In this document: positions 15,206-53,137 of the stretch, in pieces
Layout: every line of letters starts with the position of its first letter
How positions within the stretch are numbered: position 1 is the stretch's first letter
Origin: a virus
Lineage: Duplodnaviria > Caudoviricetes
Length of the DNA: 53,581 nucleotides
IMG/VR virus record: IMGVR_UViG_3300032223_002826
Location: 1 to 53,581 of that record
Reading direction: 5' to 3' (one strand)
The notes under the pieces: model-generated
What the model was told of the DNA's origin: nothing
Databases searched by the model: none
What the model saw: the letters and a program-made list of their open reading frames with translations, nothing else
Position numbers and translations under genes: made by a program

Positions 15206-16081
15206 TCACGAGACGGCGGTGAAGCCAGTCAGGACCGTTGGACGACCTTCGAGCGCGAACCCGAAGTAGCCCTTGATCATGAAGTCCGTGGAGTCCTTGG
15301 TCTTTGCCAGTTCCTCATAGGTGAAGTCCTGGTGAACAAGGAGTTTCGCATCCGAGCGGCGGACAAAGGCAATCTTGTCCGACTTCTCGTCATGCAGATC
15401 CGTAACGATCGGAATACCATCATAGGTCATGACGCGGAAGCCAGCGGCAATCTCAGTCTGATCCATGAAGCGCTGTTGCGCAACAAGGAGCGAGTTGATC
15501 TTGCGCTTGACAGCGCGACCAGCCACGATGAGGTCAACCTGACCAAGGGAAGCGTCGATCGCTGAATCGATCGCGGCGAGGGTGAGTGCACCGCTCGTCG
15601 TAACCGTCGAAGCGGCGTTGGCGCCGTCCGCATCAGTAACCTGCTGGTAGATACCCTTGATGCCATTGCCCGTGCCGTCGCCAGTGGCGAGGTCGGTTGA
15701 CAACTTCTCGGCAAGAACGCGGCTGTGAGCCTCGATCTCGAGCGCGAGCGCATCGATAAGCGAGCCAGCGGCGCGCTGAAGGGGACCAGTCACCTCACCA
15801 CGGGTGTACAGGTAAGCAACAGGAACAGCAACGCGGACATGCGTCGTGTTCGTTGCCGACGGAAGCGAGCCGCCGTCGGTCGCCCACGAAGCGGTTGGGT
15901 TAGCCGTGCGCTTGCGGACGAAATAGGTGTTCGTCGCCCAAGGCATCTTGGTGACGGCATTATAAAGAACAGGCTCCTTCGACACATAGTCGCGGATAGC
16001 CTCATCGATCACCAGAGGGATCAGATAAGCGCTAGAACCAGCGGCAATGTCGAGCGCCTTGCGAACGCTAGTGACATCCAT
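15206..16081 (-). CDS. major capsid protein (HK97 fold, no delta domain)
   Basis: 291 aa downstream of protease/scaffold; AYLIPLVID, GDGTG..IKGI, TYDGIPIV motifs; strong codon bias. Confidence 0.9.
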   Translation of the reverse strand: MDVTSVRKALDIAAGSSAYLIPLVIDEAIRDYVSKEPVLYNAVTKMPWATNTYFVRKRTANPTASWATDGGSLPSATNTTHVRVAVPVAYLYTRGEVTGPLQRAAGSLIDALALEIEAHSRVLAEKLSTDLATGDGTGNGIKGIYQQVTDADGANAASTVTTSGALTLAAIDSAIDASLGQVDLIVAGRAVKRKINSLLVAQQRFMDQTEIAAGFRVMTYDGIPIVTDLHDEKSDKIAFVRRSDAKLLVHQDFTYEELAKTKDSTDFMIKGYFGFALEGRPTVLTGFTAVS

Positions 16082-16105: not shown

Positions 16106-18433
16106 CTACTTGCGGTGAGCAAGAGCAAGACCCAGTCGCAAACGCTCAGAAGGCGAAATGCTGGCAAGATTTGCCATCACATCGTCCTGAGTCGTCTCAC
16201 CACGCTCAATGAGAGGCGGGGCTGAAACGGCAGGGCTATTTTCCAGTTCCACAATGCGAGCGGATGCCTCAGCAAGAGCACGCTTGAGTTCCTCAGTTTC
16301 GTCGACAACGGTTTCCTTCTCAGGTTCGATGGCGACTTCCTCAAGGTTAGACTCATCGGCGTTAGAGACCGACTTCGCAGTTTCATCTTCAACCTCTTCG
16401 CTAAGGAGACCAAACTCCTTTAGCGCAGCGGTCATTTCTTCGTGGAGGGCAAGGAGACGAGAGGCGGTCTCGGCGCTAATCTTGCGCCCAACCTTCTCTA
16501 CATCAGCCTCAACCTCAACTTCTGGGACAACTACCTCGGCACCGCACTCACCGCATTCGCAGGGAGTTTCATGCTCTGGATTGCTATCCTTTTCAACTTC
16601 GCCCTCAGAAACGACAGCCTCCTCAAGAGGTGCCTCTGCTGGCTCAGATGTTTCAATAACAGGAGCCTCAGGCTCGGCGACAACAGCCTCAGCCTCAGGA
16701 GCAACAACGGTCTCAACCTCTTCGGCTGGAACATCGTCGATCGCCTTGTGCAGAACCGTTCCGAAGGAAGGGGTCCACGCAGGTCGAGTGGTGTTGCTAA
16801 TCTCGTTCAAGGTCACATCGTAATAGGTACGAATGTTCTTGCCAAGATCTGGCATGAACTCATCCTTATACGATCGGACTGCTCCAGCAACGGACATGCC
16901 AAACTGCTTGCCCTTCTGGAGTTGAGCGAACAAATACATTGCTGCAGGATTCGCCTCATCAAGTTTGACCTCGACACCGAGGTGCATCTTATCGGTAATC
17001 CATGCACGGACGATCGAGCCAAGATCACGAAGAACGCCATCTTGAGCATGCGCATCGCGATATGGAAGAGGATTGGTCAATGCATTCTGGCTGATCTGCT
17101 CAGCGAATCGCTGAATAGCATCAGGAGCCATACGCTCATCAGTTGCATCAATCTCTGGACCAGAAGCCTCGCCAAGGATGTAGAATCCGTCAGCGCGCTG
17201 CTCAGCCTTCGAGATAGGGAAAGTAATCTTCCAAGGAGCATTGACGCTCTTAGCAATGCTTTTCATAGACATATCCTCTGGAGTGTTGACATTAGGATCT
17301 TCAACATCCTCCACAACTTCTACGCCAGAGGCGCGAAGTTGCCAAGTCCACTTCTGAAGCATTTCTGCTCGACCAGCAAGGAAGTTTGCAATGCCCTGCT
17401 CATTAGCAGCGCTTGCAACATTGAACATGCGGGTGGTCTCGGCGAGGAGAACATTCAATCGATTGAGGAGGTCCTCAGTCATAAGGTCAGGGTCATCCTG
17501 AACGCCAGTCTCATCTGCGGAAACAAGCCCAGCATCACCAATAGATCGAAGGGCAACAAAGTCTCCAAGACGGAATGGAGCGTCAACAGATAACTTCAAT
17601 AGGCTCTCGGCAATAGGGTCAACTGATTCATAAAGGTCGCTATAGATCTCGCCGAACAGTTCATGATACTGCGAGAAAAGTTCGCCTTTTGCATTCCAGT
17701 GATAGCCATGAGCAGTAAAGTACACGGTAACGGTATCGGACAAAAGTGCCTTGAGCCCATCAACAAGTTCAGGGGTCGCAGTCTTCTGCACTGATTCGCT
17801 CTTTGCGAGATCAGATTCGCTAATAATCCACAACTTACAAACCGCCTCTCCGGGGATTACCCCAGCAACGATCTCGCACTGACCGCCGTTTGCTGCGTCC
17901 CAAAAGACACAGTTCTTGCACATCAGTCCGGCATCCTTGAAGGGGTTCTTATCAGGCGGCGCATAGTGAGCACCGTTAGCCCCCTCTGTTTGGTCAAACT
18001 TACCGAACTCCGATGCAATCTGCTTGTAAGCAGCATACATCGCTTTCTGGCGCTCGTTCAGCATTACGCCCTCACCAAGATCTTTCTTGGTTGAGCCGCT
18101 GGCGACACGCTCAGCCCACGCTCGAGCACGGGCATTATCTGTCTTTGAGCCACCGCCCCAAAGGGCTGCAGCAACAACTCCGGGAGATGGATAGTCAGGA
18201 TGCCCACGCTTTGCAGCAGGAGCACTCATGTCAGGCTCATGGCGAGCAAACCATGCTGCCATACGCTTTGCCTTCTCTCGGCTGATTTTCTTGGACTGAA
18301 CAATGCGCTTCGCTTCAGCAACAGTCTTAGGCTTTAGCCCACTACCAGCCTTGCCCTGCGCATACCAGTTCAAACCATCATTCATGTTGGTAACAAGCCA
18401 ATCGGCTGCGGAAACGAGATCAGATTCAGCCAT
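16106..18433 (-). CDS. capsid maturation polyprotein: N-terminal domain + HiPIP-like CxxC-x10-C-x12-C + Dps/ferritin-like + prohead protease + acidic scaffold
   Basis: between portal and capsid genes; Dps signature HGYHWNAKG..F...HELF.E.Y...VD.IAE (aa 242-276); protease H462, GMSVAG, EIS..RPA; Glu-rich C-terminus. Confidence 0.88.
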   Translation of the reverse strand: MAESDLVSAADWLVTNMNDGLNWYAQGKAGSGLKPKTVAEAKRIVQSKKISREKAKRMAAWFARHEPDMSAPAAKRGHPDYPSPGVVAAALWGGGSKTDNARARAWAERVASGSTKKDLGEGVMLNERQKAMYAAYKQIASEFGKFDQTEGANGAHYAPPDKNPFKDAGLMCKNCVFWDAANGGQCEIVAGVIPGEAVCKLWIISESDLAKSESVQKTATPELVDGLKALLSDTVTVYFTAHGYHWNAKGELFSQYHELFGEIYSDLYESVDPIAESLLKLSVDAPFRLGDFVALRSIGDAGLVSADETGVQDDPDLMTEDLLNRLNVLLAETTRMFNVASAANEQGIANFLAGRAEMLQKWTWQLRASGVEVVEDVEDPNVNTPEDMSMKSIAKSVNAPWKITFPISKAEQRADGFYILGEASGPEIDATDERMAPDAIQRFAEQISQNALTNPLPYRDAHAQDGVLRDLGSIVRAWITDKMHLGVEVKLDEANPAAMYLFAQLQKGKQFGMSVAGAVRSYKDEFMPDLGKNIRTYYDVTLNEISNTTRPAWTPSFGTVLHKAIDDVPAEEVETVVAPEAEAVVAEPEAPVIETSEPAEAPLEEAVVSEGEVEKDSNPEHETPCECGECGAEVVVPEVEVEADVEKVGRKISAETASRLLALHEEMTAALKEFGLLSEEVEDETAKSVSNADESNLEEVAIEPEKETVVDETEELKRALAEASARIVELENSPAVSAPPLIERGETTQDDVMANLASISPSERLRLGLALAHRK

Positions 18434-26699: not shown

Positions 26700-27005
26700 T
26701 ACGCTCTATACCCCTATACCAGTATAGTATATATAATATATATAACATAGTATAGGTATTAGTATGTATAACGCGTATAGCGCTTATATCCTTTATCTCC
26801 TTATCCCTACCTATCACCCTTATCCTCTTATTGCTATTAGAAGGGCTCATATGCTTAGTAGTACTTAGACACTATAAGCCAATAAACGCCTCTCCTAGGG
26901 CTTCCTAGGGGCTTCTGAGGGCATTATAACCCTAGGTCGTAAATACAAAAATAATACAAAAATAATCAATATCCCCTCGACTTTTAAAACGACATGTATT
27001 TTGTT
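26700..27005. other. AT-rich tract, candidate origin unwinding element
   Basis: TA runs, repeated TTATC(C/T) and AATACAAAAAT x2; sits between divergent transcription units next to the motif array. Confidence 0.45.
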
Positions 27006-28169
27006 TAGTCACCAGCGCACTAATAAATGGGGTGGTTTGGAGCCCCCCAAAGGGGGGCTAACCAAGCACGAAGGGATCACGGCTTACCTACGCCGACCCT
27101 TACAACGCGTGCAGGAGCGCGCGCTAAATACCATGACGCGCACGAAGGCAGGTGCGCGCGGAGCGAGCACGGTAGTTTTACGCGTGCGGTAATCGCGCAG
27201 GAAACTACGCGCCTAGGTAGGCGCCTCAAGGTATCCCGAAGGGATACAAACCGCGCGAGCGTAGCGCCTAGGGGTGCATGCGGGAATACCTTGTCGCGCG
27301 CTCAAGGCGTGCGACTTACCTTGTCGCGCACGCGAGGGTACGCGTGGTTTACCTCGTCGCGGGTAGGGGCGCATGGGGTTCCTTGTCGCGCGCGCAGGCA
27401 TGGGGTTTCCTCGTCGCGGGTAGGGGCGCGTTTCCTTGTCGCGGGCGTAGGGGTAGGCGCCTTGCGCGCGGTCAAGGATAAATAACACGCGCACGGAAAA
27501 CGGCGCCCGTTGTCGCGCAGGGTTTTTACGCCTAGGCGCGCAGGGATTCTTTGACGCGGGCGTAGGCGCCTAGGCACGCGCGAAAAGGAAATCAGGCGGG
27601 CGTGGTTCATTGACGCGGGCGCGTACACCCCCGCAGGCGCGGCAAGGAAAAACACGCGCGCAGGGTTCTTTGACGCGCGTATGGGCGTAGGCGCGCGCGG
27701 AGAATAGTAAACACGCGCGTAGGCGCCCAGCGCGCGGAAATGGATAAATAACACGCGTACATGCGCACGCGTAGAAAACCCTGCGCGGTTGATCTGCGCG
27801 GGGTTTTACGCCTAGGCGCGCGGCAAGGAAGTTGCCCGCACGGGATTCCTTGGCACGCGTGCGGGTATGCGCCTATGCGCGGCAAGGAAAACATGCGCCC
27901 GTGCGGTTCATTGACGCGCCCACGGGCATGCACGCGCACGCGTAGAAGGAAAACCGCAGGCGCAGGAAAACCGCGCAGGATTGATCTGCGCGTGGTTTTT
28001 ACACGCAGGCGCGTGATTTTCATTTCTGCGCGTGCAGGGGTAGGCATGCGCGCGCGTCAAGGAAAACCTGCGGGCGTGTATGCCTAGGGGCGCGTCAATG
28101 AATCCTGCAGGGGCATGGAGACCGCAGGGAGCAACGCCCGCAGTCTCCGTGCGCCGCGCGAAGGCAAAA

Positions 28170-28216
28170 CAACCCCCTAAAGGGGGTTGACAAACCAAAA
28201 TCCGCCGTGGGATGCT
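28170..28216 (+). promoter_or_regulatory. sigma70-type promoter with hairpin overlapping -35
   Basis: CAACCCCC-TAAA-GGGGGTTG, TTGACA 28187, 18 nt, TGn-GATGCT. Confidence 0.65.
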
Positions 28217-28276
28217 TGCAAAAGCAACGCCGATGACGGCGGAGCACAAGTCCCCCGAAGGGGGAAGGAGGGCAAC

Positions 28277-28549
28277 ATGACCGAAGCGAAGATGAGCACT
28301 AAGACCCTACGGGTCTTTTTCGGCTCGGCAAGCGATGACGGCGACCTGAACGAGACCGAAGGTCTCGCGGAGCGGCTTGCCGCTCGGATCGGCTTCTCCG
28401 AAGCCTATGAGACCTCTTGGGTTGATGGATCTCCGAAGGAGATCATGAGCAATGCTCGGTATCGTGAAGCCATCGCCGTGCTCTTTACTGGCGATGGCTT
28501 CGGCTTGTGCTTGATCCCCGAAGCCGTCGTCATGGCTCGCCTAGCCTGA
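28277..28549 (+). CDS. early hypothetical protein (90 aa)
   Basis: AGGAGG RBS, own promoter and terminator. Confidence 0.8.
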   Translation: MTEAKMSTKTLRVFFGSASDDGDLNETEGLAERLAARIGFSEAYETSWVDGSPKEIMSNARYREAIAVLFTGDGFGLCLIPEAVVMARLA

Positions 28550-28566
28550 TCCCCTTCGGGGATCCG

Positions 28567-28601
28567 CCCCCTGATCCCTTCGGGGATCAGGGGGTTTTTT
28601 T
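28567..28601 (+). terminator. intrinsic terminator
   Basis: CCCCTGATCCC-TTCG-GGGATCAGGGG then TTTTTTT. Confidence 0.9.
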
Positions 28602-29573
28602 ATTCCCTTCGGGAATAAAACACGCGCGTATACGCGCCTCAAGGATAGTTATCCTTGAGGCGCCCGCAGGCACATATACGCACGCGCCTCAAGGAATATA
28701 TATTCCTTGCCGCGTAGCGCGGGCGCTTTTCATTGCCGCGCAGCGGGCGCGCTTTTCATTGTCGCGGGCGCATACACGCGCCCCTGCACGCGTAAAAAAG
28801 AACACCCGTGCTTAGGCGGATCTGAAGACTTTCACTTTAGTGAAAGTCTTCTTTACGCACCTGACTGACTACCAGCGACGCGGCTAGGCTAAACCTTCGC
28901 GCGGAGATCAAACGCGCGAGGTTTTTACGCGTGTTTTTCCTTGTCGCGCGCAGAGGCACCGAAGCAGGCGCGAAGACTGAAATCCGCACCCTAAAAACGG
29001 CGCGGGACTAAGTCGCACAGGGTTTTGTGAAGCCATCCGAAGCGCTGCCAATGCCGACGGCGTGGTTTTGGATTCCCCTTAGGGGAATCTCCGAAGCGGT
29101 CGGCAAGGGCTGCTAAAACCCCCTGAAAGGGGGTTTTCCGACACGCTAAGCGGTGTTTGGGCTTTGGGTAGGGTTCTCCCCTTCGGGGAGAAAAAACCGC
29201 GTTTATGCTCGCTTTTCATTGTCGCGCGCTCAACGCGCCCGCGCACGCGGATAAATGAACCGCGCTCCAAAAACAGCGCGCAGTAAACGGCGCCCAGTTT
29301 TTGAGTAGCCACGCGGAAATCAACTAACGCGCGCAGGTGTATACGCGCGCACGCGCGTAAAAGGAAATAACGCGCGCTACTTAGACGCGCCAGCGAACAC
29401 ACCTAGCGACGCGCCCGTGCACATATATACGCATGTACGCGCGCGCCTAACGCGCGAGCGCAGGGCTACGGCTCGTAAAACTCCGCAGAGTTTTACAGCG
29501 CGCAGGGCTGAAGAGAGCAAAATCCTACGGATTTTGCGACTTCGCAACGCAGGCACGCGCGCGAGTATCCGAC

Positions 29574-29701
29574 CGCTTTTTCTTTGCGAAGAAAAAGCGA
29601 CTTCATCGCTATACCCTAAAGGGTATAGCGATGTCATCCCTTTACTCCAAGAGGAGTAAAGGGATGTTTTCTATTCTCGTGGCAATCGTAGATTGCCACG
29701 A
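29574..29701. repeat. four tandem perfect inverted repeats
   Basis: CGCTTTTTCTT/AAGAAAAAGCG; CATCGCTATACCC/GGGTATAGCGATG; CATCCCTTTACTCC/GGAGTAAAGGGATG; TCGTGGCAATC-GTA-GATTGCCACGA. Confidence 0.9.
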
Positions 29702-29906
29702 TAATAGGGATTTGCGGCGATTTGAGGCTGCCGACCCCCCTTTTTGGGCTGCCATGGCTCCCCCTTTTCCAAACGAGCCTATCCCTCGTTCTTTTACTTC
29801 GGTGTAAACACCTCGTAAAATAACTTCGGTCTAGGCTCGTTTGCGTGCGCGCTCGGGGGCGCAAAAGTTTTGCGCGCCTCATGATGCGCAAGCGCGTAGC
29901 GCGTAA

Positions 29907-29977
29907 GTGTGTGCGCGTGTACATGTGCGCGTATACGCGTATACATGTGCGCGTATATGTGTACATATGCGCGCGTG
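29907..29977. repeat. 71-bp perfect alternating purine-pyrimidine tract
   Basis: GTGTGTGCGCGTGTACATGTGCGCGTATACGCG...ATATGCGCGCGTG without a break. Confidence 0.9.
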
Positions 29978-30135
29978 GAAAGGCTGAATATTTTTCGTAG
30001 AAAAATATTTTATATGTGCATAATGCGAAGGGACGCCATGATGTGAGCAGCGTTCAGAATCTCTTTTTTCAGTAAGAAAAAGAGATTTTACTACGCGCGT
30101 ATTTATACGCATGCGACGCATACGCGCATCACACG

Positions 30136-30217
30136 GCGTGTCAATACTAAATACCTTCGGTATTTACCCTTACTTCGTAAGGGTCGTATTGACACGCGAG
30201 GAAGGCTCTGGGATTGT
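30136..30217 (+). promoter_or_regulatory. T-shaped palindromic element A plus promoter (TTGACA 30189, 17 nt, TGn-GATTGT)
   Basis: 12-bp outer arms enclosing two 19-nt triloop hairpins. Confidence 0.8.
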
Positions 30218-30265
30218 TGTTGAGGAAGCGGCGCCAAATCGCCGCATCGGATCGGAGGTCTCGCA

Positions 30266-30643
30266 ATGGCTAGGACAGCACGAACACTCGTCAAGCAGCA
30301 CACTCTGGTTGCAACCACATATGAGGCAGCGGTTCTCGCCGCAACTATTGCCCCCTACGGGGCAAATGCGATTGCCCTTGACACTGATGGGGTAATCGCC
30401 GCAGTAGTCTATAAGACTACTTGCGGTTGGCAGATTGAGCGTTCCGCCGATTGCCCTTGGGCAATCCGTGGTCTTGTGATGCAGTTTACTGCATCACATA
30501 TGCTCATGAAGGATGCGATTCGCCGCCTTCGCCAGATTCAGCGCCTCGCCGTTGCAGATCCTAATGAGGATCTGCATGAGTACGAGGAGGATGAGACCAA
30601 TACCTATAAGGTATTGTGCAACAAGTGCAACCAGTATGCCTGA
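30266..30643 (+). CDS. early hypothetical protein with C-terminal Cys/His motif
   Basis: GGAGG RBS; 125 aa. Confidence 0.75.
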   Translation: MARTARTLVKQHTLVATTYEAAVLAATIAPYGANAIALDTDGVIAAVVYKTTCGWQIERSADCPWAIRGLVMQFTASHMLMKDAIRRLRQIQRLAVADPNEDLHEYEEDETNTYKVLCNKCNQYA

Positions 30644-30707
30644 TCCCTTTGGGATCAGATACAATCGCCCCTCCCCTTCGGGGGAGGGGCAAGCAGGAGG
30701 TGTAAAC

Positions 30708-31085
30708 ATGGCGGAATCCCTTCGGGATTATGTTCTTGCAAACGGCGGTGCAACTATTCTCCTTGAGAATAGTTCGCCATACACTGCAGAAAACGGCTAC
30801 GCCGTTGGCGTTGCGACTGGCACATACTTTCGGGTACCAGTTGCTACAGCAACTGCAGAGCAACTTGGAGCGCTTGTGAATAATATCAAGGATATTATTC
30901 ATCTAGGCGGCACGATTCTTGACGAAGCCAACGCAGTTGGCTTTTGGGTGAATGATGGATGGATCCACATTGACCCAGTGCAGATCGTCCCTTCGGGACG
31001 AGACGCCATCAACCTAGGGTATGAGCGAAAGCAGGAAGCGATCTATGACTTCCGTAGGAAGTCAGAAATCTTCTTGCCCCGCTAA
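30708..31085 (+). CDS. early hypothetical protein
   Basis: AGGAGG RBS, start MAESLRDY; GFW..DG.I.ID...A...G..RKQEAIYD. Confidence 0.8.
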   Translation: MAESLRDYVLANGGATILLENSSPYTAENGYAVGVATGTYFRVPVATATAEQLGALVNNIKDIIHLGGTILDEANAVGFWVNDGWIHIDPVQIVPSGRDAINLGYERKQEAIYDFRRKSEIFLPR

Positions 31086-31105
31086 TCCCAAAGGGATTAC
31101 CAAAG

Positions 31106-31129
31106 CCCCGCCCTCTTCGGAGGGCGGGG
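31106..31129 (+). terminator. UUCG hairpin at operon end
   Basis: CCCCGCCCTC-TTCG-GAGGGCGGGG; no U-tract. Confidence 0.5.
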
Positions 31130-31353
31130 TGAGCACATATATGTAGAGGTGTGTGCATACACCTAGCCGTATGCACACACTCCTGCAGATATGCAGGCGC
31201 ACACACATACACGCGTGCGGGCGCGCACGCACGCACACACGCGTACATACGCGCGTAAAAACCTCTCCAAAAAAACAAAGTTTTTTTAGTAGGGGCAGTG
31301 CTAGTAGCGACGCGGATCGGAAGCAATCCCTAAAGGGATTGGGAAGGAGAAAC

Positions 31354-31644
31354 ATGCAGAAAAACGATCACAGTCAGGTAGGTTATACGCAGGAGCAAAT
31401 CAATAAGTTCATGGAAATGCATACCCTTGTCGTAGACAAGGAAGCGATGCAGGCTCTTCGTGATGAAGTCAAATGGCTTCGTGAGGTGATCGCCAATCTC
31501 CGTAAGGAGATTGATAACCTCCAAGCAGAGAAGTTGCCTATGGCAACTTGTGCCGCTTGCCACGAAGACTTTCCACATAACAAAGTTATGTGGGTCGCCA
31601 ATCGCTACGAATGCGAATGGTGCTACGAGCGCTTGTCCATATGA
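31354..31644 (+). CDS. coiled-coil plus zinc-finger protein
   Basis: AAGGAG RBS; heptad stretch; CAAC...CEWC. Confidence 0.75.
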   Translation: MQKNDHSQVGYTQEQINKFMEMHTLVVDKEAMQALRDEVKWLREVIANLRKEIDNLQAEKLPMATCAACHEDFPHNKVMWVANRYECEWCYERLSI

Positions 31645-32882: not shown

Positions 32883-33094
32883 GCAAGGTTTTGTGCCATC
32901 GTTGCAATAAAACGATCCGTAAGGATCGTGTCTTCATGCTGTTGTTCACCCCATTCCATAAGGAATGTGCCATGATCTTCGGCGGGATGATGATTATGGC
33001 AACTCCCGATCCTATAGATCGGGATATTCTTACCCGTATTGTGTACGGCGACAAAGTCGCCGACAACATCAAAAACAAGGAGGTGCAAGCATGA
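32879..33094 (+). CDS. small zinc-binding protein
   Basis: ATGA coupling; CHRC...HKEC. Confidence 0.7.
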   Translation: MSKVLCHRCNKTIRKDRVFMLLFTPFHKECAMIFGGMMIMATPDPIDRDILTRIVYGDKVADNIKNKEVQA

Positions 33095-33354
33095 ATCGGA
33101 TCGCTATCATCATTCTGATGATTATGGCTGCTTTTGTTGGGTTCTTTTTGCCGCCATCAGCCGCCGTTGAGACGCTTCTCAACGGCGAACACTTCCGACA
33201 AAACTACCCTGATGGTAGTTTTATGGTTGGTGTTATCTACTACGACGAAGTCGTAGGGGATCGTTGCGCAATGGGAACAATGCACACCGCTGATGGCAAG
33301 GTTTACAACCTTGACAAGTGGTGCGGCGATGACCTACTCCCCGTTGGGGAGTAG
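33091..33354 (+). CDS. small membrane-anchored or secreted protein
   Basis: AGGAGG RBS; hydrophobic N-terminus MNRIAIIILMIMAAFVGFFL. Confidence 0.7.
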   Translation: MNRIAIIILMIMAAFVGFFLPPSAAVETLLNGEHFRQNYPDGSFMVGVIYYDEVVGDRCAMGTMHTADGKVYNLDKWCGDDLLPVGE

Positions 33355-33557
33355 CGCTTTGCTCACACCCCTGCCCTCTATGTGAGGGTAGGAGCGTGTG
33401 CAATCGCACATGGTGTATGTATATGCATACGCACATATACACATGGGCGCGCGTATACGCACGCGCTCGCTCGCGCACATATACGCGCGGGAAAAAGTTG
33501 GAAAACCAACTAGCATGACGGCATAGGTTAGCGACGCGTAAGAAAAGCGACGCAGCC

Positions 33558-33605
33558 CAATCCCCCTAAAGGGGGTTGACAACCAGTTTTTTGAGATGCT
33601 ATCAT
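33558..33605 (+). promoter_or_regulatory. sigma70-type promoter with hairpin at -35
   Basis: CCCCC-TAAA-GGGGG, TTGACA 33576, 18 nt, TGn-TATCAT. Confidence 0.85.
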
Positions 33606-33651
33606 GTATATAGGCGAGGGAAGTCCCCTTGGCAGATCGGGAGGTGCAAAC

Positions 33652-34074
33652 ATGAAGGTTCTGAAGGTATCGCTAAGCAACGAGGATGTTGCAGGCATTA
33701 TTCATACCGCCGTTGAGGGTGGTACGAACTACTGGGGCGAAGTGCGCGGCTACAAGTGGACGACTTGGTATGAACCAGACCCCGAAAAGTCGTACGACGA
33801 CGAGTATGGATCGTACAAGGCGGAGCGTGTCAAGGGTCTCCCCAAAGACTTTGTCTTTGTTGAGATTCGCGAGGATGAGGATCTTACTGATCCTGAACGC
33901 AAACCGAATACTTGGTTCCCTCTTACAAGGGAAGCGATTGAGCGAGGAGTTTGCATGGTTCTTGAGAACCATGGGCACCTTATCAACATTCGGGATGGCG
34001 AGATTGACACTGATGCCTACGGCGCCGATGCCATCGTTCAGATGGCAGTGTTCGGTGAACTCGTCTATGGGTGA
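33652..34074 (+). CDS. early hypothetical protein
   Basis: GGAGG RBS; EGGTNYW and DA..ADAIVQ.AVFGELVYG. Confidence 0.8.
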   Translation: MKVLKVSLSNEDVAGIIHTAVEGGTNYWGEVRGYKWTTWYEPDPEKSYDDEYGSYKAERVKGLPKDFVFVEIREDEDLTDPERKPNTWFPLTREAIERGVCMVLENHGHLINIRDGEIDTDAYGADAIVQMAVFGELVYG

Positions 34075-34243
34075 GCGATGGGAGCAGCGAGCGGCGGCGC
34101 GAGATGCCAAGCGCCGTCGCCGCAACAATCCGATGGACACCTTCTATCAGAAGGTATGGCACGATATTGATCGGCTACGAGCCGATCGCAACAAGGAGGT
34201 GCGACATGATCGTAAGGGCACACGCTCGTCAACGACTCGCTGA
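34067..34243 (+). CDS. possible small Arg-rich protein
   Basis: fills the gap between two genes; weak RBS. Confidence 0.35.
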   Translation: MGERWEQRAAARDAKRRRRNNPMDTFYQKVWHDIDRLRADRNKEVRHDRKGTRSSTTR

Positions 34244-34514
34244 GCGTCTATCTGCTGCAGAGCAGCAGCAGGCTATCAGTCATGCTGCTCAGATCGCCCC
34301 TTCCGTAAGGAAGGGAGATGGAGTGGCAGCCGTGCTTCTCCGACTGGAGAAGCGACGCAACAATGGCAAGCGCTCCGTTTCTAACGGAGACATGGTTGTC
34401 GGCATCATTCGGGATGGCGAACTTATCACCATCATGATGCGCCGCGCTAGTCAGGTATTGGACGCAGCGACGCTACGCGTTCAGCAAGTGGTTGATGCAA
34501 CATTGGCGGCATGA
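34206..34514 (+). CDS. HAxxRxxER-motif protein (possible RelE/DUF4258-like fold)
   Basis: AGGAGG RBS; HARQRLAER...VVGIIRDGELITIM. Confidence 0.6.
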   Translation: MIVRAHARQRLAERLSAAEQQQAISHAAQIAPSVRKGDGVAAVLLRLEKRRNNGKRSVSNGDMVVGIIRDGELITIMMRRASQVLDAATLRVQQVVDATLAA

Positions 34515-34518
34515 AAAC

Positions 34519-34567
34519 CAATCCCCCACAAGGGGGGTTGACAAGCCGAAAAACGGCAGGTTATCAT
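34519..34567 (+). promoter_or_regulatory. sigma70-type promoter with hairpin at -35
   Basis: TTGACA 34538, 18 nt, TATCAT 34562. Confidence 0.85.
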
Positions 34568-34573
34568 GTATAT

Positions 34574-34890
34574 ACACGAGACGGCTTCATCGGCTGTCTC
34601 GGATCGGCTCGGTACCAACAGGTTCCTAGGACTGCTGTTGGACTGAGCACGGGGTGAGATTGGACGAGCGAGCGATCCGCAGCCCTAAGTGCGGAAGAGA
34701 GGCATGGCAGAGCGATGGCAACTAGGACAGACGCTGTAAGTCTGGGAGTTGTAGGTGGTTCGGTTGTAGCCGACGGGCATGACAACCGAGCAGCCAACGA
34801 GCGGCGTATCGCTACCGACGGGTGGCGATGCGTTGCTCGGATCGTGGCGGAAGGGTGCATACGAAAGTTCAGCCCCTTCCGCCACCATTG
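34574..34890 (+). ncRNA. candidate structured non-coding RNA or long leader
   Basis: directly after a promoter; at least six helices with many G-U pairs; the first strong RBS is at 34907. Confidence 0.65.
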
Positions 34891-34918
34891 TTTGGAAAAC
34901 AAAAGTAGGAGGTGCAAC

Positions 34919-35197
34919 ATGGGGTACGCAACGGCAATCGGCATAGCCGATAGTGGATTGGATTTGGATGTTCAGTTGCAGTGGCATTTCACGAGCAACT
35001 GCTACCCGCCTATTCCGCTCGGAATGATTGAGCCAGCAAAGGCAGCCATTGCGCTTGCGCAAAGTGGCGAGTCGGACAAGATGGTAGCGATGCCAGAAGG
35101 CGTTGAGCACCGAAAGTATGGGACGCAGGTTCCTGCATGGGTGCTCATTCATTCGCTGCACTTGGAAGCATTCGCAGACGCAAGCGAGGAGGAGTAA
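34919..35197 (+). CDS. early hypothetical protein
   Basis: AGGAGGTGCAAC-ATG. Confidence 0.8.
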   Translation: MGYATAIGIADSGLDLDVQLQWHFTSNCYPPIPLGMIEPAKAAIALAQSGESDKMVAMPEGVEHRKYGTQVPAWVLIHSLHLEAFADASEEE

Positions 35198-35199
35198 GC

Positions 35200-35469
35200 A
35201 TGTATAAGCATATTGGTTGCAACAGGAACATTGGCGTTGGCTTGACAGCCAAAGCGATTGTCAACCTAACGACAACCTCATATGACAAGGAAAAGTTCTG
35301 GCTTGAAGAGCCAGAAGGCATGAGCGAAGATCTCGTAGAGATCATTGGTATTTATTGCTATGAGTGCAACGAAACAATCAAGGAGATTGAACCCGTTGAC
35401 CTTCAGACCTTTGAGAGCGAGATGTCCATTGGCGCGCATAACGATGTGCTAACATGGGACGCCGACTAG
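35200..35469 (+). CDS. hypothetical protein
   Basis: GGAGGAG RBS; HIGC...CYEC. Confidence 0.7.
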   Translation: MYKHIGCNRNIGVGLTAKAIVNLTTTSYDKEKFWLEEPEGMSEDLVEIIGIYCYECNETIKEIEPVDLQTFESEMSIGAHNDVLTWDAD

Positions 35470-35481
35470 TCGGCGTTTTGC

Positions 35482-35510
35482 TTGACAAGGTTTTTGGCAG
35501 ACTGTATCAT
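35482..35510 (+). promoter_or_regulatory. sigma70-type promoter
   Basis: TTGACA, 17 nt, TATCAT; preceded by GCCGACTAGTCGGC palindrome. Confidence 0.85.
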
Positions 35511-35554
35511 ATAGGTATGCGAGGGACAATCTCTCGCCAAGTAGGAGGTGCAAC

Positions 35555-35911
35555 ATGGATCGGAAGAATGGTCGCTATCGGGTTGGTAGCGTTGGAGTTG
35601 ATGCAGGTATGGTCATGGTCGGAGACCCTTGCTACCTAGACAAGTTCACAGATCACGACTTTGACGACGCAAAGGTAGAGGCGCAAAAGGCGAATGGCAA
35701 GTACGAATACTCGTACAGCGGCGCTTGCGCCGCAACGCTATCGGACAATAGCGCAGGTGAGTTGGGTAATGCTGATGCCGTTGCGGTAAGCAGTGGGTAC
35801 GGCGACGGGGTTTACCCCGTCTTCGCAACTTACAATCATGATGGTCGTATCGTCAAGTTGGAAGTCATCTTTGATGGCGACCATGGCGACGAAGACAGCG
35901 ACGAAAAGTAA
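35555..35911 (+). CDS. DUF4241-like protein
   Basis: VGVDAG.VMVGDPCY and VSSGYGDGVYPV. Confidence 0.7.
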   Translation: MDRKNGRYRVGSVGVDAGMVMVGDPCYLDKFTDHDFDDAKVEAQKANGKYEYSYSGACAATLSDNSAGELGNADAVAVSSGYGDGVYPVFATYNHDGRIVKLEVIFDGDHGDEDSDEK

Positions 35912-35925
35912 GCAGGAGGTGCAAC

Positions 35926-36249
35926 ATGGCTAACCCAGAAGACGCAGACTACACGCCGTGCCAGAAGTGCGGCAATGAGTGGGCTGAAACACTCCATCAG
36001 GAGTGTGGCATCGTTTGTGAAGAGTGCTACAACGCATGGAAGGAGCCAGACATGGGAACAACCTATAGGGTTGTGCGAATGTACTTTGAGGATCACCCTC
36101 GCAAGGTGATTGTTGCTGGCAAGACGCTGGAGGAGGTTCAGCGCTGGTGCAGCGACCCAGACACGAGCAGCAGCACGACAACGAGCGAAGCAGGAAAAGC
36201 CCATACTGAAAAGTATGGGGCATGGTTTGACGGATACGAGGAGGAATAG
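35926..36249 (+). CDS. hypothetical protein with N-terminal zinc finger
   Basis: AGGAGG RBS; CQKC..CEEC; TLEEVQRWC.DP.TSS. Confidence 0.75.
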   Translation: MANPEDADYTPCQKCGNEWAETLHQECGIVCEECYNAWKEPDMGTTYRVVRMYFEDHPRKVIVAGKTLEEVQRWCSDPDTSSSTTTSEAGKAHTEKYGAWFDGYEEE

Positions 36250-36251
36250 GA

Positions 36252-36542
36252 ATGTCGGCGGATATCAATCAAAAACGCTTCCTTGTGAAGTATCACACAA
36301 TGGTTGTCAAGCATCTGCTCGTTTGGGCGGATGACGAAAGCGATGCAGAGGGGCGCCTCATGACCACGGATTCGGAGTTGTTTTTCTCCCCTTCTGGGGA
36401 GGAAGATCTTCGTGCCCTTGGCATTGAGGTGCTCGGCGACGAACCCGCTGGTCATGGGTACGCAGAAGCGATATCCCTTGGCGAGGTTGACGAAAAAAAG
36501 TCAGTTGACAGCAATACGATTGTGGTCAAGGAGGGCGAGTGA
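36252..36542 (+). CDS. hypothetical protein
   Basis: operonic 96-aa ORF. Confidence 0.65.
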   Translation: MSADINQKRFLVKYHTMVVKHLLVWADDESDAEGRLMTTDSELFFSPSGEEDLRALGIEVLGDEPAGHGYAEAISLGEVDEKKSVDSNTIVVKEGE

Positions 36543-37902: not shown

Positions 37903-37945
37903 GTATGAGTAGGTGCTTACCTACGCAAGAGAAGGAGGTGCTCAG

Positions 37946-38818
37946 ATGAGCAACAAGGTTTACGAGGTGATCGCCGAAAGCATCACCAATGCACTGGACA
38001 AAGGCGTCGTGCCATGGCGCAAGCCGTGGAACGCGGAGCAGATGACGCCACGCAACATGAAGGGCGTGCCGTATCGTGGCATCAATGTGTGGTTGCTCAT
38101 GCTGCAGGGTCATGGTAGCCCGTATTGGGCAACCTACAAGCAGGTCAACGAGGCTGGCGGCACGATTGTGGCAGGCGCAGAAGGTACGCCTATTGTGTTC
38201 TGGTCGCGCTACGAGGTTGAAGACGAGAATGCAGGCGGCGAAAAAACCGTCAAGAGCATCCCTGTGATTCGCTACTACAAGGTGTTCAATCAGTCGCAGA
38301 TCAAGGGCATTGAGTTCCCTCCGCTGCCTACGGTAGGCAAGAGCGAGTTCTCGCCGATTGAGGCTGCAGAGCGTGTGATTTCATCTATGCCAAAGCGCCC
38401 AGACATTAGCGATAATGGTGGAGCCAAGGCGTATTATGTCCCCTCGCAGGATAGTATTCACATGCCAAGCAAGGATACCTTTGAGAGCGCAAATGGGTAT
38501 TATGCGACGCTCTTCCACGAGATGGCGCATAGCACTGGGCATTCGTCTCGCCTCGCTCGCAAGAGCGTTGATGAAGCGGCGCCATTCGGTAGCGACATCT
38601 ACGCTCAGGAAGAGTTGATTGCTGAGTTTGCTTCGGCGTTCCTCTGCGGAGAGACTGGCATCTCGCCGTCGGTGATTGAGAACGCTGCAGCATATATTGC
38701 TGGCTGGAAGCGAGCGATCAAGGACGACACCCGTGCCGTGATCTCCGCAGCAAGCAAGGCGCAGAAGGCGGCTGACTACATCCTCGGACGGGAGGATGCA
38801 GTTGCCAAGGCAGCGTAG
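37946..38818 (+). CDS. ardC: ArdC-family antirestriction / ssDNA-binding zincin protein
   Basis: GVVPWRKPW, YRGIN..LL, WATYKQ, VFN..Q, AYY.P..D.I.MP, TLFHEMAHSTGH, YA.EELIAE, AAYIAGW. Confidence 0.93.
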   Translation: MSNKVYEVIAESITNALDKGVVPWRKPWNAEQMTPRNMKGVPYRGINVWLLMLQGHGSPYWATYKQVNEAGGTIVAGAEGTPIVFWSRYEVEDENAGGEKTVKSIPVIRYYKVFNQSQIKGIEFPPLPTVGKSEFSPIEAAERVISSMPKRPDISDNGGAKAYYVPSQDSIHMPSKDTFESANGYYATLFHEMAHSTGHSSRLARKSVDEAAPFGSDIYAQEELIAEFASAFLCGETGISPSVIENAAAYIAGWKRAIKDDTRAVISAASKAQKAADYILGREDAVAKAA

Positions 38819-38963: not shown

Positions 38964-39237
38964 GGATTTCATGAACGCAGTCGCAGAGGTTATGGGGTTC
39001 GGCAGCGCGTGGAGTAAGGACATTGACGGCACAATCGTGGAAGAGAATATCTTCTTCCATGGGGCTGAGGTATCCGATGATAATGGTCGCGTACATGTGC
39101 AGTTTGCGCTTTCATATCCAAGCCGAGAGCATTCGGAGGCTGGTCTTGCACTGCTCTTGACGGCAGGCGAGGCTCGTCAGTTCGCCAAGGTTTTCACCGT
39201 AGCGGCAGACCTGCTTGACGCGCAGGAAGGTATCTAG
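38938..39237 (+). CDS. hypothetical protein
   Basis: AAGGAG RBS; 99 aa. Confidence 0.7.
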   Translation: MANSEFKIEDFMNAVAEVMGFGSAWSKDIDGTIVEENIFFHGAEVSDDNGRVHVQFALSYPSREHSEAGLALLLTAGEARQFAKVFTVAADLLDAQEGI

Positions 39238-39243
39238 TACACT
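39215..39243 (+). promoter_or_regulatory. promoter of recombinase
   Basis: TTGACG, 17 nt, TACACT. Confidence 0.65.
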
Positions 39244-39307
39244 CGGGGGCAACCCCGATCGGGTGAGTCTGAGTGGCTCACAAAACGGGTATATAGGAGG
39301 GTGCAAC

Positions 39308-40186
39308 ATGGACATGAACGCAGCAGTCAGCCTATTCGTTAGCCAGCGGCAGTCAAGCGAGACGCGCCGTTCGTATGCTCAGGATCTTGCGCGATGGCAG
39401 TCGTGGCTGGATGAGAAGCAGTTGAGCCCGCAGATTGCGGTGGCGTATCGCGACTATCTTAGCGGCAAGTATGCCTCTGCGACAGCCGCCCGCGCGTTCC
39501 ATACGGTTCGCGTGTTCTATCGCTGGCTGCAATCCGCAGGCATTGTGGCGTCCAATCCGTTTGACGGCATTGAGGCGCCAAAGAAGGTCAAGAATCTAAC
39601 GCCAAAGGTTCCCGCAGATGCGGATATTGAGGCGCTTGTCGCAGCGTCTCTTCGCGAAGATGCGCCCGCTCGCTATGCGGCAGTGATCGCGTTGCTGCTC
39701 AACGGGCTGCGAGCCAGCGAGGTGCGTATGCTTCGCAAGGATGCGATTGAGAAGACGGACTACGGGACGATCCTGCGCGTGGTGGGCAAGGGCGTGAAAG
39801 AGCGCCTTGTGCCAGCAACCAGTGAATCAATCTATGCCTTGCAGCGCTATTGGAGCGACGCGGGAAGCAAGGAGATGAGTTCAGTCTGGGCGTTGCCTGA
39901 TACCAATGGCGAGATGCTCACGGTTCGTCAGGTGCAGCACGCAGTATACAAGTGCGCTGAGTGGGCGGGCATTCATGGGATGCATGCTCACGCCTTGCGG
40001 CATCACTATGCCACGCGGCTAATCCGCAATGGCGCTGGGGTGCTTCAAGTATCTAAGTTGCTTGGGCACTCTCGAGCAGATACCACGCAGGTATATGTGA
40101 CGCTGGACTTGGCAGACCTCGTAGAGGCAGCCAGTGTAGATCCAAGGGCGGTACCTGATAAGCCACGCCTTGTCGCTATCGCATAA
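39308..40186 (+). CDS. XerC/D-like tyrosine recombinase / integrase
   Basis: SAM-like N-terminus; GLRASE, GKG.KER, HALRH, LLGH, TTQVY catalytic set. Confidence 0.93.
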   Translation: MDMNAAVSLFVSQRQSSETRRSYAQDLARWQSWLDEKQLSPQIAVAYRDYLSGKYASATAARAFHTVRVFYRWLQSAGIVASNPFDGIEAPKKVKNLTPKVPADADIEALVAASLREDAPARYAAVIALLLNGLRASEVRMLRKDAIEKTDYGTILRVVGKGVKERLVPATSESIYALQRYWSDAGSKEMSSVWALPDTNGEMLTVRQVQHAVYKCAEWAGIHGMHAHALRHHYATRLIRNGAGVLQVSKLLGHSRADTTQVYVTLDLADLVEAASVDPRAVPDKPRLVAIA

Positions 40187-50493: not shown

Positions 50494-51654
50494 TTACTTC
50501 TTGATACCGAACTGGGTTTGATTTGGGTCGAGGAACTTCACAACCGTCTGGAGAGCAGATGCAAGTCCAGCCGAGAGGATGACTCTGAAGTCACCACCTT
50601 GAATGTCAAGAAGCGGAATGCCAAGACCAAGTGCAACTGAAATGCTTACAAGCACGAATGCTCGAAGCGCGTCAAGCAATGCCTCGTCGACCTGAGTGTT
50701 TTTGAAGATCCAACCCATAGCAGCAACAAGTCGCTTCATAGGATTCTTTTCTCCTTTCGTCGCTTCGGCAGCATTGCCAAGCGTTTCCAATGCCTCTGCA
50801 CCAGCGTGCTCCCAATCGACCTTACTTAGGTCTGGCATCTCAATCTTGGGATAGTTGCGCGATTTAACCGCAGGCTTTTCCTCTTCTGGGACGATATCCC
50901 CAAGGGCAAGATTTCGCGACCCACCACCAGAAACTGGCTTAGGAGCGACTTGAGTCACTGGCACCGTAGGCTTAGGAGCCTCTGGAGCAGGGGCAGGAGC
51001 CACGGAGACAGGAGTTTCTGCCTTAGGAGCCACCTTGACAGGGTACTCAATAATAATGCAGTGCTTGTAGTCTGGCAAAGAATCAGACTTAGACACTCGC
51101 TTTGAGTCTGCGATGGCGCGAAGTTGCTCTTCAGTCACCTTAACTGCAAACTCTTCTGCGCCCTTACCGCTTCGCGTTGGGCAGCACCACTGCCAGCCCT
51201 CTTCAGGATCCCAGCCAGCAGAGGTCATATGCCCATACCCAGCCTTAACATGGCTTGGGTCTTTCTTGGACCAATACTTTGCCCACTTAACATGCCAAGC
51301 ACTTATTTCCTGTCCAGCAGGATAGCCAATAGGTTGCTGAACCCAGACGCCGATACCCGCACCGCGCTTGCCTGAATCAACAACATCTTGCCAAGATTTT
51401 GCATAGCGAGCCGTAGCGCCAAGAACCTTTGCGGTGGCAATCAACTGAGGAAGTGAAGACCCGTTATCCGAGACCCCATCCTTGTCGACCTGACCAGTTG
51501 CCTTGAACTTAGCCTTAATGCCATCGCCAGCCGACGGATCGAACTGGTACTTGGCTGCCCACGCGACGGCGGCAGCAACACTGGAAGGACCGCAATCGTC
51601 TAGAATGCCACCCTTCTCAATGTAATCAAGTTGTGACTTTACTTTGTACTTCAT
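50494..51654 (-). CDS. putative endolysin (C39/papain-like Cys peptidase) with Pro-rich linker and C-terminal holin-like TM domain
   Basis: SQLD...DDCGPSS..AA and GHM...G; AGGAG RBS; two C-terminal TM helices ending FLDPNQTQFG. Confidence 0.7.
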   Translation of the reverse strand: MKYKVKSQLDYIEKGGILDDCGPSSVAAAVAWAAKYQFDPSAGDGIKAKFKATGQVDKDGVSDNGSSLPQLIATAKVLGATARYAKSWQDVVDSGKRGAGIGVWVQQPIGYPAGQEISAWHVKWAKYWSKKDPSHVKAGYGHMTSAGWDPEEGWQWCCPTRSGKGAEEFAVKVTEEQLRAIADSKRVSKSDSLPDYKHCIIIEYPVKVAPKAETPVSVAPAPAPEAPKPTVPVTQVAPKPVSGGGSRNLALGDIVPEEEKPAVKSRNYPKIEMPDLSKVDWEHAGAEALETLGNAAEATKGEKNPMKRLVAAMGWIFKNTQVDEALLDALRAFVLVSISVALGLGIPLLDIQGGDFRVILSAGLASALQTVVKFLDPNQTQFGIKK

Positions 51655-51664
51655 ACTTCTCCTA

Positions 51665-51838
51665 CTACTCGCCAACGATCCTGAGCGGCATCGTTAGCAC
51701 CCAAACTAGCGTCATTCCAGCAAGAACACTCCCCACAATGTCGCGGGTAGCACCGTCCGGAAGGACAGCCCATGCAATAGCAAGACCAAAGATAGTCCAG
51801 CCTGTTGCAACAATCTCATTGATTACTCTTTTAATCAC
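51665..51838 (-). CDS. small two-TM membrane protein (57 aa, below the ORF-track cutoff)
   Basis: GTGA coupling; MIKRVINEIVATGWTIFGLAIAWAVLPDGATRDIVGSVLAGMTLVWVLTMPLRIVGE. Confidence 0.75.
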   Translation of the reverse strand: MIKRVINEIVATGWTIFGLAIAWAVLPDGATRDIVGSVLAGMTLVWVLTMPLRIVGE

Positions 51839-52942: not shown

Positions 52943-53137
52943 TTACTTTCCTTGGCTGCTGATCCATGCGGTAATACCGCCAAGCCCAGAAAGACCAAGA
53001 AGCGCGATCACAAACTTGGCAAGTCTATATGCACCGCGCGTTTCCGCTAGTTCAACCTTGATCTCTGCAAGGTCGGTCTCAATGCGTTCAAGTCGCTCTA
53101 GAATCTGATCTACTTGACTCTTAGTCACAACAAACAC
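52943..53137 (-). CDS. small coiled-coil plus TM protein (XhlA-like lysis accessory)
   Basis: ILERLERIETDLAEIK then hydrophobic C-terminus; start possibly GTG 53128. Confidence 0.7.
   Translation of the reverse strand: MFVVTKSQVDQILERLERIETDLAEIKVELAETRGAYRLAKFVIALLGLSGLGGITAWISSQGK

Follow-up and report, generated by a model that had tools for sequence, protein, structure and literature searches.

In the window, a DNA stretch of 53,581 bp that constitutes an IMG/VR virus record with direct terminal repeats, about 350 nt separate a strong early promoter from the first strong ribosome-binding site (RBS), and the question raised by this locus is what is encoded in between. The promoter, TTGACA-18-TATCAT, lies on the + strand at 34538-34567, is of the sigma-70 type and agrees with the consensus at 11 of 12 positions; the RBS, AGGAGG, is found at 34907-34912. 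Both elements had been described in a first-pass annotation, which proposed that the segment specifies a highly structured, possibly new phage non-coding RNA of about 320 nt, and both were borne out. The promoter is one of three such promoters within 33000-36500, and its sisters, at 33576 and 35482, have short leaders. From a transcription start expected near 34574, the segment up to about 34895 is, with high confidence, a real conserved structured RNA; the proposal of a new + strand non-coding RNA is upheld by a conserved, covarying family that is absent from Rfam 15. The explanation favoured as a whole, to which we assign a probability of about 0.6, is that of a conserved, uncatalogued phage small RNA which acts in trans and which, in this phage, is a leader as well.

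The fold is strong and it is specific for one strand. The minimum free energy (MFE) of the + strand of 34574-34890 is -165.3 kcal/mol, against -118.6 +/- 4.9 kcal/mol for 100 dinucleotide shuffles (z -9.48, with no shuffle as good), versus -120.0 kcal/mol (z -3.72) on the - strand; the MFE structure contains 110 pairs, 12 of which are G-U, in agreement with the earlier claim of an RNA-level structure on the plus strand. Its helices are 34577-86/34592-601, 34607-21/34635-48, 34754-67/34782-95, 34798-816/34821-39 (19 bp, with four G-U pairs) and 34844-58/34872-85. The first-pass helices 34577-85/34593-601, 34607-13/34642-48, 34615-21/34635-41, 34758-67/34782-91 and 34844-55/34874-85 are all contained in this structure, and the 19-bp stem with its four G-U pairs was recovered at the same place; conversely, a proposed helix 34602-06/34673-77 was displaced by one nucleotide (the partner of GGAUC, GAUCC, lies at 34674-78), does not belong to the MFE structure and has no counterpart in the relatives. 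Two helices of the family had been overlooked, P2 (34677-81/34690-94) and P3 (34718-23/34747-52 together with 34728-32/34740-44). When the whole window is folded in sliding segments of 200 nt, 34701-34900 ranks third in + strand stability for its GC content, and its strand difference (-111.2 on the + strand versus -78.6 on the - strand) is among the largest of the segments listed, with two segments at 29801-30100 showing differences comparable to or above it. The latter belong to a GT-rich GCGCGTATACATGTG repeat area, where the values are -96.7 and -82.3 kcal/mol on the + strand versus -60.3 and -56.9 kcal/mol on the - strand, and they could represent another + strand RNA structure.

Relatives of the RNA were found in metagenomic data. 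Contigs of four DNA runs, aligned to 34000-35500, included strains about 98% identical to the window; several short contigs matched 34695-34755 only, with foreign flanks, and their loose ends repeated the hairpin CCGCAGCC...UGCGG. A degenerate search pattern was derived from this hairpin; a first, stricter DNA pattern gave no matches, and the degenerate one yielded six loci in IMG/VR, five of them true homologues. A second pattern, made of three invariant blocks, gave 13 true homologues out of 13 in the same database, and a third, in which the P1 loop was not required, 17 out of 19. The family now amounts to 17 copies in 16 IMG/VR records plus that of the window, 18 copies in all. One 83-kb record (G005) has two diverged copies (L104 and L112), at 15372-15602 and 70873-71107, about 55 kb apart. 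A covariance model, R1, was built from a 17-sequence alignment, which includes the window sequence, and from a hand-written structure; with it, each of the 18 copies reaches E<=1.8e-38, and the next match is a 46-nt chance one with E 4.9e-5. The window is matched at 34606-34836 along the full model (positions 1-239; 110.1 bits, E 1.8e-38). Applied to 27 whole records, R1 recognised 17 copies in 16 of them, two being those of the 83-kb record, and none in 11 records from phages with homologues of P0002 or ArdC in common, including three records with a completeness of 99-100%; 97 unrelated loci (965,141 bases) gave no match.

The RNA is carried by uncultured lake phages belonging to a broad clade. 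In one genome per species, for 185,579 species, the second pattern matched just two loci, in Nonomuraea and in an Acidimicrobiales metagenome-assembled genome, both of them chance matches with no similarity outside the pattern; blastn of the window copy and of a relative (L107) against 50,697 GenBank phage records gave no match. The first-pass annotation could not match the RNA by eye to tRNA, tmRNA, RNase P, SRP RNA or a riboswitch, and Rfam 15 and ARAGORN gave no match either: none of the 4227 Rfam models matched the window at gathering score, ARAGORN found no tRNA and no tmRNA in it, and the only hits within 34400-35000 at E<=10 were chance matches to mir-1549 and asX2. Five loci of relatives (E<=1) and two single RNAs (E<=10) returned look-alikes of a microRNA hairpin, SorX and His_leader, all far below gathering. 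A supposed likeness to the c-di-GMP-II riboswitch received no support from the Rfam scans of single members. Full-text literature on phage RNA kissing loops and motifs, queried also with short sequence words and with supplementary files outside its scope, does not describe the family. By these comparisons the RNA family appears new, being in no RNA catalogue (Rfam 15) and without a match among the GenBank phages.

Covariation among the copies argues for the proposed structure. In the model-fitted alignment (A5) 80.2% of the cells are paired, against 67.1 +/- 0.9% after shuffling, and 29 of 47 pairs changed on both sides, against 18.0; the covariation score is 0.308 versus 0.134 for shuffles, none of which was as high in 500, and the best slid-partner control reached 0.153. 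An alignment made with MAFFT only (A3) gives the same picture: 76.6% of cells paired versus 66.2%, 28 of 48 pairs changed on both sides versus 17.6, and a score of 0.253 versus 0.127, again with 0 of 500 shuffles as high and with a best slid-partner control of 0.175. Such two-sided changes affect 12 of the 16 pairs of P5 and, in the outer helix of P3, two of six pairs (C-G to A-U or G-C, and G-C to A-U). Two of the checks named by the first-pass annotation, folding energy against shuffles and covariation, both came out in its favour. Natural strains add to this: the four variants listed inside helices, 34594 C>T in H1, 34619 C>T and 34646 A>G in P1, and 34884 A>G in H7, each convert a Watson-Crick pair to G-U on the + strand and would produce an A-C mismatch on the - strand. 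All four are suggestive of a + strand RNA, the other 32 variants not being among those listed. Two further changes, 34768 A>C and 34781 G>A, co-occur at an unpaired position beside the P4 stem.

The conserved core, P1-P5, occupies 34606-34839 on the + strand and has a length of about 235 nt; with the additional hairpins H1 and H7 it becomes about 320 nt in this phage, so that the length first proposed holds for this version of the RNA and not for the family. When folded singly, all 18 sequences form P1, P3, P4 and P5, and 56 columns are invariant among the 17 aligned sequences, mostly in loops and junctions. P1 (34607-34648, paired as 34607-21/34635-48) varies in length and in sequence across the copies and has the apical loop A-U-CCUAGG-A-A, whose palindrome CCUAGG is located at 34625-34630. 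A first joining strand (34653-34672) comprises GGUGAG (34653-58) and GACGAGCGAG (34663-72); in the 17-sequence alignment GACGAGCGA is invariant and GGUGAG is invariant or at least 90% conserved. It leads to P2 (34677-34694), a CCGCA/UGCGG hairpin with loop GCCCUAAG, which is paired in 100% of the cells across the family and in which four of five pairs never vary; in most relatives P2 continues below a bulged G with differing sequences, as read by eye from the alignment. The second joining strand (34695-34719) is AAGAG..GCA..GCGAUGGC in the window and AAGAG..GCA..GCGAUGAC across copies, with GAG, CA and GAUG invariant. P3 (34718-34752) is a two-part hairpin, paired in 95% of the cells, in which 34718-23/34747-52 is the outer helix and 34728-32/34740-44 the inner hairpin; P4 (34754-34795) has the tip CC-GACG-GG and is closed by the GG of a conserved UAGG and the CC of a conserved CCGA. 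The core ends with P5 (34798-34839), an uninterrupted stem of 13-19 bp in the family, 19 bp in the window, with a GACG loop in 18 of 18 copies. The window thus holds the marks of the family, i.e. P1-P5, GGUGAG, GACGAGCGA, CCGCA/UGCGG, GAUG, CUA, GGAG and the GACG loop on P5. Three candidate further helices, read by eye, have registers that vary among copies and were left uncounted: S1' with AAGAG, a hairpin that would close the GACGAGCGAG loop, and the extension of P2.

The organisation around the core suggests how the RNA is expressed. In the type-A copies (n=11) a promoter of the form cTTGACA-17/18-(GATACT, GAGAAT, TATTGT or similar) ends 5-9 nt before P1. A sigma-70-like promoter in front of P1 is therefore found in 11 of 18 copies, or in 12 of 18 with the window, where the gap to P1 is 39 nt because H1 intervenes. 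The six other type-B copies (L099-L101, L104, L106, L112) have no TTGACA promoter at the RNA; its place is taken by a phage-specific motif that recurs before the next cassette. Such motifs, of which GTTAGGATCTAGGGTATATGGTAGG and GTAATG-N9-GGTGGATAGTGGAGG are examples, are seen about 70 nt up- and downstream of the RNA and are candidate promoters, perhaps recognised by another sigma factor or by an RNA polymerase of the phage. After P5, at least 4 U within 9 nt are present in 15 of the 18 copies (2 in the window), and in those type-A copies that were examined, among them L105, L107, L108, L111 and L115-L119, P5 is succeeded by a palindrome framed by GTTC...GAAC and by a new promoter. Promoter, U-run and fresh downstream promoter together indicate that the family is mostly a stand-alone unit, which would normally be a self-contained small-RNA cassette made of early promoter, RNA and a terminator formed by P5 and its U-run. 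Because most relatives have this organisation, the family is read as a trans-acting RNA, and action mainly in trans seems reasonably likely. Around the RNA, on its own strand, lie small early genes, which code for example for RadC/JAB-like proteins and for proteins without assigned function, in an order that varies by phage.

The window departs from this scheme in four ways: H1 is added, P5 is without U-run, H7 with its tail CAUUGUUUGG is added, and the downstream gene P0003 is without a promoter. H1 (34577-34601, + strand) is a 10-bp 5' hairpin of the MFE structure that lies outside the family core and is absent from the 17 relatives, whose promoter abuts P1. H7 (34844-34895, + strand), also in the MFE structure and in this phage only, has GC-rich, perfect arms of 12 bp and a tail with five T among its first 9 nt; the hairpin's loop is of 18 nt, its U-run is interrupted and it is not listed by a terminator scan. 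H7 and its tail are a candidate 3' end for the RNA of about 320 nt, where termination would take place. The gene P0003 (34919-35197, + strand; ATG at 34919) codes for a protein of 92 aa with no assigned function, and a promoter scan detected no promoter of its own. Given the P5 without U-run, the added H7 and the promoterless P0003, the window RNA probably combines two roles, that of a small RNA of about 320 nt and that of leader for the P0003 message. The translation-start block AAGTAGGAGGTGCAACATGG, 20 nt long, occurs in identical form at 34903-34922 and 35539-35558 and with 80-95% identity at 35910-35929 and 34190-34209. In one natural strain (a contig of run X5) the 16 nt between 34887 and 34904 have given way to 222 nt, a net gain of 206, and this insert between H7 and the P0003 RBS might represent one more small cassette or a promoter.

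This anatomy bears directly on the alternatives in which the RNA would act on its own transcript. In a cis-acting leader, of the riboswitch or protein-dependent attenuator type, P1-P4 would sense a ligand or a protein and P5 (here P5 with H7) would be a conditional terminator controlling read-through into the early genes behind it. The succession of promoter, conserved structured domain, hairpin with U-run and gene is indeed the layout of transcriptional riboswitches, the invariant junction nucleotides and covarying stems look aptamer-like, and the promoterless P0003 of the window would depend on read-through. However, the downstream gene varies by copy and in the type-A copies examined is separated from P5 by a palindrome and its own promoter; no conserved antiterminator pairing between the aptamer and P5 was seen in a search that was not exhaustive, a GACG loop kept in all 18 copies would be uncommon in a simple expression platform, and no Rfam riboswitch matches, so that a purely cis-acting leader is considered unlikely. 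The first-pass annotation had also suggested an antitermination leader, a role known from putL and putR of phage HK022, RNAs of about 70 nt with two stem-loops which, as nascent transcripts, bind the transcribing RNA polymerase in cis and cause downstream terminators to be read through. The position of the RNA directly after an early promoter recalls these elements, but a core of about 235 nt with five helices is much unlike them; moreover, a terminator-like hairpin with U-run ends 15 of 18 copies and a new promoter follows in type A, leaving little to antiterminate. A leader role is thus retained for the window only, and a put-like mechanism is judged very unlikely. Lower still is the probability of a sponge for CsrA/RsmA, in which many GGA motifs would titrate the host translational regulator: the RNA is purine-rich (G 31-38%, A 22-29%), contains 6-12 GGA per copy and displays AGGA within the CCUAGG loop, but none of the 18 copies shows GGA enrichment relative to dinucleotide shuffles (z -1.5 to +0.9), A(N)GGA occurs just twice in the window, the AGGA of the loop is lost in four copies, and conservation spans far more than GGA.

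Those four copies (L115, L116, L118, L119; three distinct sequences) have UCUAGA in the P1 loop, and the remaining 14 of 18 have CCUAGG; the hexamer stays self-complementary because the change of C to U at its first position is matched by that of G to A at its last. It is too short for pairing inside its own loop, and a self-complementary hexamer that is exposed in a hairpin loop and remains palindromic in its variants is what defines a candidate kissing loop. A homodimer held by this contact is the simplest reading, by analogy with known loops, and it is offered tentatively, at somewhat less than even chances. The palindrome has a counterpart in DNA, and an element with no RNA function can be envisaged, in which palindromes would serve the shuffling of cassettes or CCTAGG would be bound by a dimeric DNA-binding protein. 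In these phages palindromes do bound the early cassettes, and the window has 15 CCTAGG sites versus about 7 expected, nine of them at 26894-28088; conversely, in the other family genomes the sites are unclustered and below expectation in six of seven. The marked strand asymmetry, the 12 G-U pairs of the MFE structure, strain variants that keep G-U where the other strand would have A-C mismatches, and invariant single-stranded blocks that are not palindromic also speak against a DNA-level role, to which only a slight probability, below that of the sponge, is given. The stretch 26890-31400, which holds 9 of the 15 CCTAGG sites, is the largest gene-poor one of the window; it has GC-rich direct and inverted repeats, such as a 31-nt unit present nine times with core TTCCTTGTCGCGCGC, folds strongly on both strands in the manner of DNA palindromes and may be an origin or regulatory region.

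The least probable alternatives, close to negligible, connect the RNA with the genes at its sides, either as an antitoxin or regulator of the adjacent P0001 (34206-34514), a protein with an HAxxRxxER motif, or as a coding N-terminal extension of P0003 from the ATG at 34715. Adjacency is what recommends the antitoxin, which the first-pass annotation had put forward, and the suggestion is unsupported: no P0001 homologue was found within about 4 kb of the 17 other copies, nor any in IMG/VR. Type III toxin-antitoxin RNAs, of the ToxI kind, consist of tandem direct repeats beside a conserved toxin gene, and no such repeats are present, since the RNA is unrepeated within itself or in the window, the RBS block aside. 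As to coding, which the earlier annotation regarded as one way in which its proposal could fail, the frame from 34715 is open into P0003; nevertheless, the conserved blocks are separated by indels of 1-2 nt among the copies, the 222-for-16-nt change (34887-34904) breaks the frame in one strain, and the translation of 34715-34918 has no Pfam match. The P0003 homologues align from residue 1 and start at MGY. They were found at 17 loci (L006, L017 and L084-L098), 15 of which are metagenome loci from the P0003 alignment search, and searches with P0003 and P0001 gave no relative in IMG/VR. At the homologue loci the RNA is absent, a short leader or a small open reading frame, i.e. a short or a coding upstream region, being present instead, and one P0003 homologue occurs near another copy of the RNA, 3 kb off. 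Similarly, blastn and nhmmer found the RNA at none of the P0002 (17) and ArdC (65) loci. The indels, the broken frame, the start of the P0003 homologues and the lack of a Pfam match indicate that the RNA stretch is non-coding.

The favoured trans-acting small RNA can be formulated as follows. Host RNA polymerase would transcribe 34574 to about 34895 from the early promoter at 34538-34567, giving a non-coding product whose core, 34606-34839, would arrange the five helices P1-P5 around the invariant joining strands. Invariant junctions combined with covarying stems are typical of RNAs that have a compact tertiary structure and bind a partner, and the same combination here therefore suggests a compact tertiary fold recognised by a partner. 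The 6-nt palindrome of the P1 loop may join two RNAs through a kissing loop, and the RNA may bind or sequester a host or phage protein early in infection; that it is a protein decoy, a role also put forward by the first-pass annotation, is possible rather than probable. In this phage, the P5 U-run would have been lost and H1 and H7 gained, so that the RNA would double as the 5' leader of P0003. The most specific version, a new class of phage early RNA in which a compact core, as a kissing-loop homodimer, captures or mimics a host factor such as a defence protein or a nucleic-acid-binding regulator, is more doubtful again than a decoy in general.

Several points weigh against this explanation. 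The transcript, its ends and its termination are all deduced from the DNA, as the six runs found include no RNA run. The covariation counts are drawn from related sequences, and in the MAFFT-only alignment the number of further pair types is not significant (52 of 500 shuffles as high); across the two alignments 20-24% of the cells are unpaired, mostly because P1, P4 and P5 of the type-B copies (the window, L099-101, L104, L106, L112) are misaligned, P1 being longer and P4 and P5 of differing lengths in type B. A comparison of presence and absence in 13 genomes is confounded, since the RNA-bearing phages share structural genes with one another and not with the RNA-free set. Among the neighbours of the copies no fixed companion gene or protein partner was found, and in the window P5 is not followed by a terminator-grade U-run, which would be compatible with a purely cis role here. 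Finally, the switch between CCUAGG and UCUAGA is probably one evolutionary event, seen in four closely related sequences, three of them distinct, and the palindrome might also be explained by a site for a dimeric protein, or by the P1 loop pairing in part with the CUAGG of P3.

To our knowledge, few phage-encoded structured RNAs apart from tRNAs are known, and most of them are without known function. At least 17 phage genomes carry the family described here as a cassette that runs from promoter to terminator, within an early region rich in anti-defence genes, and the family represents a tractable candidate for a new RNA-based function in host takeover or counter-defence. At about 235 nt it is small enough for selective 2'-hydroxyl acylation analysed by primer extension (SHAPE), crystallography and cryo-electron microscopy (cryo-EM), with a defined core and a loop whose dimerisation can be tested, and R1 can serve as the starting point for an Rfam family and for screening all viromes. 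If the homodimer model were true, the RNA would stand beside the protein anti-defence genes as their small equivalent made of RNA alone, moving as a mobile cassette among shuffled early genes.

Other features of the genome complete the context. Immediately upstream, a GC hairpin, CCCCC-ACAA-GGGGGG (34523-34537, + strand), is fused to the -35 box and recurs before other early promoters. It belongs to a direct repeat family (D8) with four copies, at 27044, 28173, 33562 and 34524, and a CCCCC-N4-GGGGG hairpin is joined straight to TTGACA at the last three, more weakly at 27044; hairpin and TTGACA form, by analogy, a composite stem-loop/promoter module similar to PeSL cassettes. In the same early region, 3-5 kb downstream of the RNA, are an ArdC-like antirestriction/metallopeptidase protein (37913-38818) and a tyrosine recombinase (39215-40186). 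The terminase of the window is at most 28% identical to that of any cultured phage, and a ferritin-like-domain protein of 775 aa (16106-18433) adjoins the portal gene. Three proteins encoded on the - strand, at 50494-51675 (393 aa), 51665-51838 and 52943-53137 (about 60 aa each), are 50-80% identical across phages whose portal proteins share just 23-46% identity, an apparently unusually strong conservation; none of the three has a Pfam match, and the two that were tested have no PHROGs match.

Comparison with known systems helps to define the position of this RNA. The packaging RNA of phi29 (pRNA, RF00044) is also phage-encoded, early and structured and forms oligomers by loop-loop pairing; there, two different complementary loops build a ring on the portal of phi29-like phages, whereas the new RNA has no Rfam match and nothing ties it to packaging. 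A closer model for the P1 loop is the dimerisation initiation site of human immunodeficiency virus 1, a retroviral packaging element with a 6-nt self-complementary, purine-flanked sequence in a hairpin loop of about 9-10 nt. As in that element, the palindrome is kept in variants (CCUAGG and UCUAGA here); in the new family dimerisation is a prediction and the remaining RNA is unrelated. With the put elements it shares a structured RNA directly after an early promoter, and it differs in usually ending with its own terminator. CsrB, RsmY and RsmZ have a similar size range, several hairpins, their own promoter and terminator and GGA motifs, and they are distinguished from the new RNA by its unenriched GGA, its large invariant blocks other than GGA and the lack of an Rfam match.

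The ROOL and GOLLD RNAs are likewise encoded by phages or prophages and have a conserved complex fold, with no known function or protein partner (PMC12286853). According to the same text, they measure about 500-800 nt or more, are often located close to tRNA islands and self-assemble, by kissing loops with conserved intermolecular pairs, into 8- and 14-mer cages seen by cryo-EM (PMC12286853). The new RNA, conversely, is of about 235 nt, has one palindromic loop, which would allow a dimer at most, is located in an array of early-gene cassettes and matches them neither in sequence nor by model. The motifs bound by Aca proteins in the 5' untranslated regions of acr-aca operons are described as structured RNAs placed right after the transcription start in early or anti-defence operons, and they indicate that a palindromic hairpin can be read as RNA by a dimeric helix-turn-helix protein (PMC13551039); as described there, they are single short hairpins beside the cognate aca gene, whereas the new RNA has no conserved neighbouring regulator. 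In its context, and in this only, the family resembles the PeSL cassettes of T4-type phages, small early units that each have a strong promoter of sigma-70-like type and end in a stem-loop terminator, and that are reshuffled among related phages (Arbiol et al. 2010, PMC2839356), and the RNA would fill one such slot. PeSLs are regulatory borders of protein-gene cassettes, while here the cargo itself is a conserved structured RNA.

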